In this document: one piece after another, positions 690 through 59,232 of the stretch
Layout of the letters: each line of letters opens with the position of its first letter
Numbering within the stretch: the stretch's first letter is position 1
From: Octopus vulgaris
Lineage: Eukaryota
DNA length: 64,000 nt
Direction: 5' to 3'
NCBI GenBank assembly: GCA_951406725.2
Contig: OX597824.1
Coordinates: 37,820,001 to 37,884,000 of the forward strand
Position numbers and translations under genes: made by a program
Notes under the pieces: generated by a model
What the model saw: the letters and a program-made list of their open reading frames with translations, nothing else
What the model was told of the DNA's origin: nothing
Databases searched by the model: none

Positions 690-1620
690 CGCCAAGCTAA
701 CATGGCAGTCCAGAAAAATAGGATGAATGCCAGCACGAGGCCAGCACGAACCTGTGTCCATTATAACCTTCGAACAGTGGAGGTCAGCCGCTTTCCCTTG
801 CTGATCTGGTATCTACAGACTAGTTTCAGGGTATTTGCCCCTTATCAATGTAGAGTAGCCGAACCCAGCTGGCGTCGCTACTGACCGTCTGTTCTACATG
901 GTAGAAGTGCATGTAAAGCAATCAGTGAAATAATAGGGACGATGATGGGTGCCTGTGAGGATGGTGGTGTTGGTGAGGTATGAGCAAGTGCGGCAACGTG
1001 GGTGAGAGCAAGGGAACGAGCCAGGTTGAGAGGTGGGGTTGGGGAAGAAACTGTGGACCAGGAGGACATGTAGGTCGTGGAATCGTTTGAAGGAAGGGTG
1101 GAGTAAGTTGGGGAAGATGTGCAAAGTGGAGGGGTCGGACTGGAGTCGCCAGAAAGCTCGGAAAATTGAGAGGCAGGGTGGAGGGGTGGTAGGTGAGGGG
1201 AACTGGATACGGTAACGGCGAGGCGGGTGCGGGAAGAGAGGGCAGATGCACGATCGACAGAACATGCTCTGGCTAGTGGGTATGGGTAGTAGTGAGGGGA
1301 TATCCACGAAGGATGAAGTGGCGAGCCATGAGTTGAGACTGAGTCTCAAAGTCATGATTGTCACTGCAGATCCTGTGCAGACGGAGGAACTGGGCGTAGG
1401 AGATAGAGAGCTAGGTGTGGGTAGGGTGGGAGGAGGAGAAGTTGAGGTATGAGTGTGAGTCGGTGTGTTTGTAGCAGAGGGGAGTGATGAGAGTGGAGTG
1501 GTGTATGTTGACCGAAATATCGAGAAAGGCGACGGAAGTGTTGGAAATGGTGCAGGCGAATTCGAGGGCAGGATGGAAGGATTGAGCAAAAGGGGAGAAG
1601 GAGTCTAGTTGTTCACGCAC
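690..1620 (-). mobile_element. Penelope-like retroelement remnant (RT thumb plus Cys-rich linker, Neptune-like) with 3' pLTR
   Basis: Frameshifted minus-strand peptides FAQSFHPALEF..VAFLDISV..YKHTDSHSYLNFSSSHP and PGSFPCSHPRCRTCSY are typical of Penelope RT C-terminus and linker; a hammerhead lies downstream. Confidence 0.85.
812..854 (-). ncRNA. Minimal type I hammerhead ribozyme, U3-A8 core variant
   Basis: Minus strand reads TCTACA-TTGATAA-GGGG caaata CCCT-GAAACTAGTC^-TGTAGA: 6-bp helix I, 4-bp helix II, palindromic ACTAGT helix III, GUC site. Confidence 0.85.
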
Positions 1621-1833
1621 CGATACAGTCATCAATATAACGACCGTATAGTTCGGGAGTAGAACCAGTGAATCTTGAAAATATTTAGGCCTCAACGTAG
1701 CCAACAAACAGGTTTGCATAGTTGGGGCCCATTCTCGTTCCCATGGTCACTCCCCAGAGTTGTTGGTAAGACTCCCCATATATATATATATATATATATA
1801 TATATATATATATATATATATATATATATATAT

Positions 1834-2315
1834 AGGTGCAGGCGTGACTGTTCGGTAAGATGCTTGCTTCTCAACCACGTGGTTCCGGATTCAATTCTGT
1901 TGTGTAGCACATTGCCCAAGCGTTTTCTACCACATCCTCGGGCCGATCAAAGCCTTGTGAATGGATTTGATAGGCGGAAACTGAAAGAAGCCCTTCGTAT
2001 ACATACATACAAGTATACATACATACATATATACATATATATATATATATATATATATATATATATATATATATATATATATATGCGCGTGTGTGTGGCT
2101 TTGTGTCTGTTTTTGCCCCGCTCCTCATAAGCCTTTTGATAACCGGTGTTGGTGTGTTTACGTCCTCGTAACTTAGCTGTTCGGAAAAGGTAAAGCGATA
2201 GAATAAATACCACGCTTAGAAAGTAATAAGTACTTGGGTCTATTCGTTCCACTAAAATTCTTTGAGGCGGTGCCCCGGTATGACAGGAGTCTCATGTGTG
2301 AAGCAACCGAAAGAT
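1834..2315 (+). mobile_element. tRNA-derived SINE family A (internal TA/TG microsatellite)
   Basis: Homologous to copies at 7310, 13920, 19570 and 46563; shared blocks AAAGCCTTGTGAATGGATTTG and GTAACTTAGC. Confidence 0.85.
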
Positions 2316-2387
2316 GGATGACGTGTGTGTATGTGTACAATACGTATGTATGTATGTATGTATGTATGTATGTATGTATGTAATTCT

Positions 2388-2620
2388 TAATACTAAAGGC
2401 ACAAGGCCCGAAATTTAGGTGGCGGGGCTAGTCGATTTTATCCATCTCAGCACGCTACAGGTACTTATTTCATCGACCCCGAAAGATTGAAAGGCAAAGA
2501 CAGCCTCAGCGAATTTGAACTCAGAAAGTATAGACGGACGAAATGCCGCTAAGCCACCATACTCAACTCGGGCTAAGCATTTCGCACGGTATGCTAACGA
2601 TTCTACCAGCTGGCTGCCTT
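2388..2620 (-). mobile_element. tRNA-derived SINE family B (Meta-domain-like)
   Basis: B box GAGTTCAAATTC and CCTTTCA.TCTTTCGGGGTCGAT core, shared with more than ten copies in the window. Confidence 0.85.
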
Positions 2621-2699
2621 AATATATCTTTGTATATAATGCACATACAAAGGATTCTTCGAAAGTAATGCAAAAGCAGATATAACTCTTTCCCCATTA

Positions 2700-56020: not shown

Positions 56021-57099
56021 TGTATAGATATATATATATATATATATATATATATATATATATAAGAGAGAGAGAGAGAGAGAGAGATTTATATATATAT
56101 ATATATATATACATACATATATGCTTATATATATATATATATATATATATATATATATATACACATATATATACACACACACTTATATATATAATATACA
56201 TGGGAAAAGCTATCTATATTTTGTTTTGTTTATTCTTTATTCCTTGTGCTTTCAGTTAGTCATTCTAAATTAAGATAAATCTTCAGTCACAATGACATCA
56301 TTTCATTTCCCAGGTGATATCATTTATCCTACATTTCAACAGCAACAATATATGTCAGTAATCTTTAATATCTCGCCATGATATCACTGAATACAGTATA
56401 ATAGAACCGATACGATGCTAAATAATTTATCATTATTCTCCAAGTGTTATGAATATTTCGAGCTTTCTCCCTATATTTGACAGATCTCATATACCTTGAT
56501 ATAATTTATTGCTTCGTTTTTCAAATGGAATTGCTTATATGCATTTTATTTGTGAAATAAAACGCTTCATATATGTTTATTAGGACCGAGAAGAATTTTT
56601 GTTACGCTGCATTCTAAACAAACAAACAATGAGTAAATAAACCGTTGATATGAGAGTTAAATCTAATTAAGACATGACAAGATGTTGTGACGTTCATTAC
56701 TTGTCTCTTCTATCATTAGTAACAAAGAGAAGCGAGACAATGTGGCTATATCCCTAATCTAAACTGAGTATTTATATCGCGCCTGTGGCGCTCGTCTAAG
56801 TTATTGTTTAGCCTCAAGTCAGCACTTTCCAAATCCATCTTTTAAAAGACAGAAAATATTTTCTCAGCTAACTTACTTACTGTATAGTCATAGACTGTCT
56901 CCATAAGTTTACACAGAAGAGAATCGAACTTTATTCATATGTAATAAATCTTAAGAAACAGCTTAAAACAAGTGTATCACTAAGAAATATAGTAGGACAA
57001 CAGTCAAACAATCTTTATGTAAGATTTATGAACTTCCAGATTCAAAACTCAGCTACTGGAAACGATTTCTTCAAACCGTTTTTCGGCGTCAATTTGACT

Positions 57100-57850
57100 A
57101 TAATGGCAGTTGTACAGTTGTGGAATATTTTAACACAACATTGCAAAACAAACGAAGCAATTTTCACAACGATACACTGTTTCGTTCCTATTTACACATC
57201 GAACATAAACCTCTATGGATAGGCGAAGAACTGTACCTAACAATTTACCAAAAATCTTGTAGACAATCCAAAGGACTAAACTCAATTTCTCAAACCAATG
57301 TCAGACACCCACTGGCCATTGTTTAATTCATAAAGGATTATCGTAAAATCGAAAGTATTTTCAAGCATATATAATGCAGTCTATTGTAGGACATCGACCC
57401 GAATATTATGGTCTGTTATATAACACATCCGCTGCAGAATAATAAAATCAGGAGTTATTTTATTTTTATTTCGTTAAGTATCGCATCGTATTACAGCCTT
57501 TGGCAATCCTGGAAATAAAGTAGGAATTTGTGAACTCTTGTGACACTCCTATAGATATTGATTGAGAAATTGTCAACTCCCAACGGGCTAAAGTAGTTTC
57601 TTCCCAACTTAATGGATCTTCTGTACCCTGAAAGATGGTTGCATAATTTTCAGTTATTCATCAACGTTCAACGTCCTTTCTTTCTTATGCTTTACACATA
57701 CGATACAGAAAACATGAAAATATTTTACGTCTTTGGCATGCCAAACAGATGAATAGATGCTCAGCGTATTACAATGGCATAGGGGAATTTGTGACGTATT
57801 TTGTAATGTTTTTTCGAGGTCAATCAAATTTCGGTAACTAATCAATTTTT
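57100..57850 (-). mobile_element. Possible highly decayed piggyBac transposase C-terminus
   Basis: Minus-strand remnants GVDNFSINIYR and RGLCSMCK..TVYRCENCFV resemble the GVD motif and the Cys-rich domain; many stops. Confidence 0.45.
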
Positions 57851-57949
57851 TTATGCTTTTCTGAAACTTTTTGTTTCTATATTGTCATGTTACTTCATGT
57901 TAATATTTACATAGGTGGGGAAGAAGTACTCAGTACATGAATTTATATA

Positions 57950-58969
57950 TCAGGTTGAGTAAAAAGTAAGCAACGTTTGGAACCATGAAGAATTTGTACC
58001 GGATTTTTGCAGAGTTTTGAATTTTTTAAAAACATTGTTTGCAATTGAGTGATAATATAGACATAGACTTTCCCAAATGCATCAATAAATTAACATTGAT
58101 ATTTTTTTCACCGTTGTTACAATCATCTGAAATGGAACTGTCAAAGCGCGATATTCGAGCAATTTTGCTATTCAACTTCAAAAAAGGACGTAAAGCAGCT
58201 GAAACTGCTCACGATACAAAACATTTGGTGAGGAAATGTTCAGTGAGTGATCAGTTTGAAAATGGTTTAAATGATTTCCCAGTAGAGACCTGAGCCTTGA
58301 AGATGGTGAGTGTAGTGGACGCCCATCTGTCATCGATGACGGTCAATTAAAGACTGTCATTGAGAAAGATCCACGTAAAACCACTCGAGAACTGGCAAAA
58401 GAACTTCAAGTTAGCCAGAAAACTGCCTGCAACCATTTGCATGCTATCGGAAGATCAAAAAGCTCGACAAATGAAAAGCAGAAAACGCGCAGATATGAAA
58501 TTTGCTCGTCGCTTCTTCTCTGTAACCAGACCGATCCATTTCTCGACCGTATTGTAACATGCAATGAAAAGTGGATTCTGTACAATAATAAAAAATGTTC
58601 TTCGCAGTGGTTGGAACAAAATGAAGCATCGAAAACCTTCCCTAAACCCGAGCTCTTCAAAAAGAAGGTTATGATGACTGTTTGGTGGTGTACTACTGGA
58701 TTCATCCACTATAACTTCTTAAAACCCGGAAAATCCATTACTGCAGAAATACATTGCCATGAAATTGCCAAAACGAACGGAAAACTGCTACTCCTCCGTC
58801 CCAGACTGGTCAACAGAAGAGGACCAATCATTCTCCATGACAATGCTCGACCACGCGTTTCACTAATGACTCTCCAGATGTTGAGGGAACTTGGCTACGA
58901 AGTTCTTCCTCACCCAGCTTGTCCCCCAGACCTTTCTCCTACCGACTACCACTTTTTCAAACTTTATTT
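57950..58969 (+). mobile_element. 3'-truncated mariner (Hsmar1/cecropia-like)
   Basis: Left TIR TCAGGTTGAGTAAAAAGTAA; MELSKRDIRAILLFNF; IVTCNEKWILY, LHDNARP, HPACPPDLSPTDYHFF; ends at (AAT)n. Confidence 0.92.
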
Positions 58970-59083
58970 TAATAATAATAATAATAATAATAATAATAAT
59001 AATAATGATAATGATAATGATAATAATAATAATAATAATAATAATAATAATAATAATAATAATAATAATAACAACAACAACAA

Positions 59084-59232
59084 CATCGAAAAATACCTTA
59101 GGAATGAGAACCCAGTTTCGAAATTTCCCCCAGACACCTGATGAAGGCTGGTGGGTATATCAGCCGAAACGTTGTGTTAACAACAAACAAGATGAGGACA
59201 AATATCCGTCGATTGTAAATAATGTAAATAAT
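59084..59232 (+). mobile_element. Solitary Penelope pLTR-like fragment after (AAT)n(AAC)n
   Basis: Short unique insert containing a canonical hammerhead. Confidence 0.7.
59133..59178 (+). ncRNA. Minimal type I hammerhead ribozyme, canonical core
   Basis: GACAC-CTGATGA-A-GGCTG gtgggtatat CAGCC-GAAACGTT^-GTGTT; palindrome AACGTT. Confidence 0.9.

Follow-up and report, generated by a model that had tools for sequence, protein, structure and literature searches.

Minimal hammerhead motifs with canonical and variant cores in probable stubs of Penelope-like elements in a genomic window of Octopus vulgaris

Introduction

Minimal hammerhead motifs (min-HHRs) are known from the terminal repeats of metazoan Penelope-like elements (PLEs). 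The text of Cervera and De la Pena (2014, PMC4209133) describes the U3-A8 core, an extra base after A9, a helix III that forms a palindrome, and solitary copies that number thousands in a genome; the counts given there are ~2,000 plus 1,300 for S. mansoni, 4,000 for the coelacanth, and 9,000 for X. tropicalis. In tandem PLE transcripts, motifs of this class pair through the palindromic helix III and cleave after position 17, weakly and as dimers (PMC4209133, PMC6765202). In an Anolis PLE, cleavage was reported to require the protein of the element, and C3G/G8C rescued it partly (PMC11167929). One Hydra-clade family was described from Octopus bimaculoides (Craig et al. 2021, PMC8557442). The present analysis concerns a window of 64,000 nt from Octopus vulgaris (GCA_951406725.2, contig OX597824.1, positions 37,820,001 to 37,884,000, forward strand), the whole stretch of DNA that was analysed. 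The original prediction, made from the sequence alone, had claimed six loci with minimal hammerheads, each with a different core. Five of them have the full type I minimal-hammerhead layout. With high confidence, these five are regarded as likely ribozymes from the terminal repeats of several unrelated PLE families, of which the window would hold solitary stubs, truncated at the 5' end and probably inert. The class, the dimer model, the U3-A8 core, and the high copy numbers were already in print between 2011 and 2014, and this is no new kind of system. The new element appears to be an A3-U8 core with a 2-bp helix II, an undescribed variant at the level of a family.

Intact hammerheads in the window

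The window has a GC content of 36.8%, and 103 perfect microsatellite arrays make up 6% of it. A relaxed type I scan recovered five of the six loci at the coordinates originally predicted, one of them on both strands; the cores and helix III palindromes were also as claimed.

812-854, minus strand: minimal hammerhead, U3-A8 core TTGATAA, helix I of 6 bp, helix II of 4 bp closed by G-U, helix III ACTAGT, C17 at 818
21904-21938, minus strand: A3-U8 minimal hammerhead, core ATGAATA with A3 at 21933 and U8 at 21928, helix II of 2 bp, helix III ACTGGT (family ACCGGT), C17 at 21909
21981-22015, plus strand: second A3-U8 hammerhead of the same locus, core ATGAATA, helix III ACCTGT (one mismatch), C17 at 22010
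49416-49450, minus strand: minimal hammerhead, C4 core CCGAGGA plus an extra A, helix III ACGT, A17 at 49420, in a 205-bp insert without an open reading frame (ORF) between (TA)n arrays
55934-55996, plus strand: minimal hammerhead, C4 core CCGAAGA, long interrupted helix II, extra U before GAAA, helix III ACTC-A-GAGT, U17 at 55990
59133-59178, plus strand: minimal hammerhead, canonical core CTGATGA plus an extra A, helix II of 8 bp, helix III ACGT, U17 at 59173, behind a (TAA)n array

The sixth locus, at 8652, lacks G5-A9 and was returned by no scan. At the other five, G5, A6, A9, G12-A14, A15.1-U16.1, H17, and a paired 3-8 position are found in type I topology, and the 3-8 pair is Watson-Crick in every case. 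The 10.1-11.1 pair is G-C at 21904, 49416, 59133, and 55934, and G-U at 812. An extra base after A9 occurs at 49416 and 59133 only, and the C4 core is found independently at two intact loci (49416 and 55934). The helices are unrelated between loci, as predicted; the longest match common to any of the six motifs is 8 nt.

A strict descriptor was defined as N3-Y4-G-A-N-N8-A with a Watson-Crick 3-8 pair, G10.1, a helix I of at least 4 bp, and a palindromic helix III with at most one mismatch. It matched five times in the window and not at all in the reversed window, and 1000 local (block-wise) dinucleotide shuffles gave a mean of 0.051 and a maximum of 2. Its canonical-core version matched once (shuffle mean 0.001). 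With a non-Watson-Crick 3-8 pair there was no match in the window (shuffle mean 0.126), and the control with a purine at position 4 gave one (shuffle mean 0.187). A looser descriptor matched six times, versus a mean of 0.88 and a maximum of 5 in 100 shuffles; looser-scan matches without a palindromic helix III were set aside as chance. Both descriptors were defined post hoc, with the loci already known. For this reason, and since the looser version gave 6 versus 0.88, the enrichment ratios are upper bounds and their significance is overstated. Read in that way, the claim that such matches are commoner than in shuffled DNA holds for this window. No Rfam hammerhead was among the 150 of 202 window matches listed, nor was one returned by focused scans of two loci.

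The five intact loci in 64 kb correspond to a 95% range of one per 5.5-39 kb, calculated from one selected window; the original prediction had given about one per 10 kb. Since the published counts reach thousands in S. mansoni, the coelacanth, and X. tropicalis, a large hammerhead population would be expected in this genome.

Coding remnants of Penelope-like elements

PLE coding remnants adjoin or tie to three of the loci: a Neptune-type reverse transcriptase (RT) at 812, a Hydra-type endonuclease at 55934, and, through its family, a Hydra-type ORF end at 21904.

900-1744, minus strand: decayed Neptune-type PLE ORF with RT motifs, thumb, and CxxxxCxxC linker, frameshifted (six-frame reading)
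55341-55739, plus strand: C-terminal GIY-YIG endonuclease of a 5'-truncated Hydra-type PLE with CxxC and CPHxxKFLL motifs, beginning at a (TA)n array

The ORF at locus 812 contains a telomerase-like RT followed by the CX2-5CxxC linker of the Neptune clade. Its motifs fit Neptune1_Ap by eye, and the clade assignment is a motif comparison only. A 65-residue piece of this ORF had 22 homologs among 29 candidates, some with PF00078/PF26215 RT domains; Pfam gave no match for two pieces of the ORF and no PLE family for six homologs. In a tblastn search, the protein P0172 aligned to 1744-900 (E 2.6e-40). The endonuclease is considered missing because this alignment stops at residue 295 of 389: the GIY-YIG domain, which has a CCHH motif in the Neptune clade, is absent between position 900 and the hammerhead, which begins 45 nt after the RT remnant. 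The core TTGATAA equals the core shown for S. mansoni family 3 (Cervera 2014, PMC4209133) and therefore belongs to the published U3-A8 type.

The segment 55341-55739 encodes a GIY-YIG domain in which CxxC and CxH motifs surround the E and N residues, as in the Hydra clade. The 132-residue frame 55341-55736 matched Pfam GIY-YIG with an E value of 0.0057, under the curated cut-off. An exhaustive protein search with this endonuclease identified 4745 relatives at E<=0.001, and Atlas GIY-YIG clusters also point to this domain; two word-indexed protein searches returned none, and cluster look-ups gave no names. The hammerhead at 55934 starts 195 nt past the endonuclease stop, and the element lies within 687 bp between (TA)n arrays. 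As in the Hydra clade, both 55934 and 21904 are inserted in (TA)n and have the hammerhead close to the 3' end; in both window copies the regions for the RT, with its RWK and DKT motifs, and for the CxCX5C linker have been truncated away. The Hydra-clade hammerheads described by Craig et al. (2021, PMC8557442) share with these loci the position behind a CxxC/CxH endonuclease, the (TA)n targets, a palindromic helix III with 4-bp arms, and a frequent unpaired base before GAAA. The helix III of 55934 (ACTC-A-GAGT) is that of Penelope-3_HM in File S2 of the same paper.

The A3-U8 family at locus 21904

Locus 21904 is a 276-bp insert flanked by (TA)n arrays. It consists of two head-to-head stubs, which form an inverted match of 202 nt with 91% identity.

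21790-21962, minus strand: left 3' stub of a Hydra-type PLE family, with the last ORF codons, the hammerhead 21904-21938, the 3' region, and a tail of ~37 nt (21806-21842), adjoining (AT)n
21965-22058, plus strand: right, shorter inverted stub of the same family, with the hammerhead 21981-22015

For a family test, covering this family alone, four runs were aligned to the left arm 21792-21968 (177 bases) at an identity of at least 80%, and variants were considered from 5%. The contigs on this arm numbered 930 in X1 (organism A), 457 in X8 (organism D), 373 in X12 (organism E), and 43 in X23 (organism A). They were chosen by likeness to the window copy; X1, which might be the source sample, has a reduced depth across helix II-III. 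The family is abundant, as hundreds of distinct contigs fall on these 177 bases; their summed depth is no copy number. Metagenome and viral scans gave no match for the family.

In none of the four runs did another letter reach 5% in the core (21927-21933 and 21915-21918) or on the 5' strand of helix I. At position 21913, G makes up 89-99% of the depth in each run, so the helix III of the family is a perfect palindrome; the predicted consensus ACCGGT was thus confirmed. At position 21922, in loop II, another letter is fixed in X12 (99.6%), which changes GATA to GAAA; this is the sole difference fixed in organism E within the motif. Minor variants were found at 21909 (7%, H17 C to U), 21912 (6%), and 21904 (8% of X23). 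Among the loose ends listed, those upstream, behind 21960-21962, read H-G-Q-K-F-L-L on the reverse strand by eye. This reading is in frame with the last codons of the left stub, and its stop overlaps the first base of helix I. It fits the CxH-xx-KFLL end of the Hydra-clade endonuclease (Craig 2021, PMC8557442), of which only the last motif is seen for this family. On the other side, the loose ends listed run into AT repeats before 21843 and before 21806, which gives two 3' termini ~37 nt apart. This spacing fits the PLE tail of 30-40 bp, and the AT-repeat flanks and the inverted truncated partner fit the PLE target and structure described in the same sources (PMC8557442, PMC11167929).

With no core variant at 5% or above, a Hydra-like ORF end, a PLE-type tail, and ends in AT repeats, the family belongs to the Hydra-type PLEs, and A3-U8 is its general state and not decay, in four runs with three organism labels. 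The family consensus, examined here for this one family, does not revert to CUGANGA.

Predicted folding and activity

In predicted structures, helix III within the monomer has at most 1 bp at four loci and 3 bp at 55934. Between copies it has 4-8 bp, with full or near-full pairing; the right arm at the 21904 locus pairs at 4 of 6 bp. Cuts are predicted after 818, 21909, 22010, 49420, 55990, and 59173. The different cores may be explained if each locus came from a different PLE family. The 3-8 pair would tolerate Watson-Crick swaps, and families could in this way have fixed C-G, U-A, or A-U. The A3-U8 motif would likely have cleaved in the master elements. Przybilski and Hammann reportedly found in 2007 that any Watson-Crick 3-8 pair is tolerated. 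Because of this reported tolerance, and because 3-8 covariants are reported as active in the text of Perreault et al. (2011, PMC3088659), activity of A3-U8 in the master element is considered somewhat more likely than not. The copies in the window are probably inert, because none has a same-strand partner and the read-through RNA of 21904-22015 would form a long hairpin hiding the motif.

Several results weigh against a reading of the five motifs as PLE-derived ribozymes. The hammerhead dimer was at no locus the predicted minimum-energy fold, lying 2.8 to 32 kcal/mol above it, and the monomer folding z-scores of the noted loci were weak (-0.1 to -1.8). Searches of the window gave no PLE coding remnant for 49416, 59133, or 8652. 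Within the 21904 family, a variant at 21920 (13% of X1 depth) breaks helix II, and conservation of the motif does not measurably exceed that of the flanks, with 5 variable sites in 35 nt versus 10 in 112 nt (hand count, private changes of the window copy excluded). X23 is RNA by guess only, and contigs cannot show RNA ends. The C4 cores and the U3-A8 core of 812 could be private changes, as a single family was sampled. Finally, ribozyme-dead mutants of the Anolis PLE were reported to be unimpaired in insertion in vitro (PMC11167929).

The last result also suits another explanation of the A3-U8 motif, in which a dead hammerhead was amplified passively. In that case the master lost its activity yet spread, and the family-wide core would be uninformative on catalysis. 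A helix II of just 2 bp and the lack of conservation in excess of the flanks are consistent with this. However, two core positions became a new Watson-Crick pair, and the remaining core, helix I, and the perfect helix III palindrome were kept under three organism labels. Moreover, a 2-bp helix II is described as common in natural hammerheads, and the 3-8 covariants reported in the same source were active in vitro (PMC3088659). Passive spread is therefore regarded as a possibility of some weight, and is not the favoured reading.

Inserts without open reading frames

The original prediction had placed two ORF-less inserts in microsatellites and suggested that they could be retrozyme-like. The insert at 49416 covers 205 bp between two (TA)n arrays. 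At 59133, only one side is flanked by an array, a (TAA)n that interrupts a mariner-like ORF. The motif at 59133 fully fits the min-HHR consensus published in PMC4209133.

The inserts might form a non-autonomous, retrozyme-like or SINE-like (short interspersed nuclear element) class that PLE proteins help to mobilise by way of small (circular) RNAs. No coding remnant was found in or near either insert, and the 49416 insert is bounded by (TA)n arrays. A SINE-type repeat with a similar hammerhead-bearing tail may occur in octopus. Animal retrozymes are proposed to originate in PLE terminal repeats, and monomers occur too (Li et al. 2026, 10.64898/2026.07.22.740005). The retrozymes that lack long terminal repeats (non-LTR retrozymes), as described in PMC7229834 and in the same study, share with these loci the short, ORF-less form, the type I hammerhead, and the link to PLE terminal repeats. 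However, they are defined by tandem repeats of at least two hammerhead-bearing units (10.64898/2026.07.22.740005), whereas the intact motifs here are single per strand. Within the window, neither 49416 nor 59133 has a tandem unit or a second copy, and no transfer RNA (tRNA) gene was called. Both motifs are of the minimal PLE type, whereas the coral retrozymes described in PMC7229834 carry canonical type I motifs in tandem repeats. The 21904 locus also shows that an ORF-less (TA)n insert of such a size can be a 5'-truncated PLE. The retrozyme-like reading was not upheld for these single units and is considered unlikely. Because the insert of similar size at 21904 is a PLE stub, the simplest reading of 49416 and 59133 would be that they are PLE stubs as well.

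In the metagenome and viral scans, the 49416 motif had one match, an exact one of 21 bases in L001 (377-397). It lies inside bacterial coding sequence and was rejected as chance; as this case illustrates, a large collection will contain short hammerhead words by coincidence. Just downstream of locus 59133, at 59537-59851, there is an inverted repeat with 146-nt arms that are 88% complementary and 23 nt apart.

Comparison with known hammerheads

The motifs in the window share many features with the metazoan PLE min-HHRs described in PMC4209133: the type I layout, the short helix I, the palindromic helix III, the extra base after A9 (49416 and 59133), the PLE terminal-repeat position (812, 55934, and, through its family, 21904), the mostly solitary occurrence, and several unrelated families per genome. 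The U3-A8 variant is also shared, with ~1,300 S. mansoni matches in that work. The cores differ more. Among the 56 representatives in Figure S3 of that paper, 53 are CUGANGA, two are U3-A8, and one is U3-G8 by hand count, and neither A3-U8 nor C4 is among them. The descriptor used there demands CUGANGA and a helix II of at least 3 bp, and would miss the 21904 family. The prediction that a CUGANGA search would overlook non-canonical cores agrees with this, since four of the five intact cores escape such a descriptor. In File S2 of PMC8557442, all 26 rows of the Hydra section are CTGANGA, whereas the Hydra-type elements of the window carry C4 in the one copy at 55934 and A3-U8 throughout the 21904 family. 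Neither of these two motifs equals Hydra-1_oBim as given in that paper.

Natural core variants were compiled by Perreault et al. (2011, PMC3088659), and those described there share with the present loci the U3-A8 covariation, U4C (in a viroid), and the 2-bp helix II. The text of that paper names U3-A8 alone as a natural 3-8 covariation; A3-U8 is not named in it, figure 5 and the supplements aside. No A3-U8 core was found in literature searches, in Figure S3 of Cervera (56 motifs), or in File S2 of Craig (34 rows), though Lunse 2017, Przybilski and Hammann 2007, Arkhipova 2017, or figures available only as images may show it.

A further explanation, considered improbable, takes the non-canonical cores for decayed CUGANGA copies with private changes, or for fortuitous hits of a permissive descriptor. 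In its favour, the descriptor was post hoc, its looser versions give ~0.9 chance matches per window, the cores of 8652 and of two other relics are plainly broken, and the family sampling covers 21904 and not 812, 49416, or 55934. Against it, the family consensus refutes this explanation for 21904, U3-A8 requires two changes that compensate each other and is identical to the core of a published family (PMC4209133), matches with an unpaired 3-8 were absent although that class is three times larger, and C4 is present independently at two of the intact loci.

Should the A3-U8 family cleave, it would be a natural high-copy case of a 3-8 pair that needs geometry and not identity, and the scaffold would be very small, at 35 nt. 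Surveys that count eukaryotic hammerheads by CUGANGA would then overlook whole families. The family also bears on whether PLE hammerheads are selected or passengers. A broader proposal may be made, tentatively and with doubt. It holds that an abundant Hydra-type family with an active natural A3-U8, 2-bp helix II hammerhead has been kept across related species, and that the genomes of this lineage hold a very large PLE hammerhead population dominated by A3-U8, U3-A8, and C4 cores, which CUGANGA surveys missed.

Putative hammerhead relics and other repeats

The following loci contain putative decayed hammerheads or hammerhead-like units.

8652-8700, plus strand: hammerhead-like relic with helices I and II and a 10-nt palindrome, G5-A9 missing
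2837-3802, plus strand: end of a decayed Hydra-type ORF (2837-3485) and, behind it, a likely hammerhead relic at ~3745-3802 with helix III ACTA-T-TAGT and a decayed core
40864-41894, minus strand: end of a decayed Hydra-type ORF (41894-41319) and, behind it, a 101-bp tandem dimer (40864-41065) of hammerhead-like units, 96% alike, with both core strands shortened

At 8652, helix II is GAGTTT/AAACTC (6 bp), which leaves just CC between helix I and G10.1; G5-A9 is therefore missing. There is no PLE protein match nearby. The locus is at best a dead relic and was excluded from the intact count.

Both Hydra-type ends, at 2837-3802 and 40864-41894, had not been noted before. Profiles built from homologs gave 35.9 bits for the ORF end 2837-3485 and 9.4 bits for 41894-41319, versus a reversed-window maximum of 2.3. 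The helix III of the likely relic at ~3745-3802 is the same as that given for Penelope-1_HM in PMC8557442. The units at 40864-41065 have hammerhead-like helices I and II, and both of their core strands are shortened identically. This may reflect decay before duplication or a recurring shortened form. The first core strand is also shortened at 8652. GAAA with a palindrome starting in AC occurs four times in the window versus a mean of 1.27, and 24 of 500 shuffles reach four. Since this pattern is not significant alone, the relic status at the two Hydra-type ends rests on position. Another candidate, at 15815-15868 (minus strand), has GAAA with the near-palindrome ACATTGATGT and a possible helix I of 4 bp, and resembles 8652. 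It has no recognisable core, is probably chance, and was dropped.

Remnants of other mobile elements are also present in the window. Mariner-like transposase remnants, recognised by eye, lie at 22505-23059 (minus strand), 54181-55110 (plus strand), and 58275-58970 (plus strand), the last one being interrupted by the (TAA)n array before 59133. An ORF remnant at 18498-19163 (minus strand), beside a (TAA)n array, is by eye similar to the restriction-like endonuclease end of R4/Dong-type non-LTR elements. A reverse transcriptase frame remnant of the long interspersed nuclear element (LINE) type is located at 24916-25545 (plus strand). Dispersed repeats of ~160-170 nt, 78-80% alike and of SINE-like size, are found at 10862-11032, 16893-17055, and 47704-47874, and at 19624-19785 and 46751-46912.

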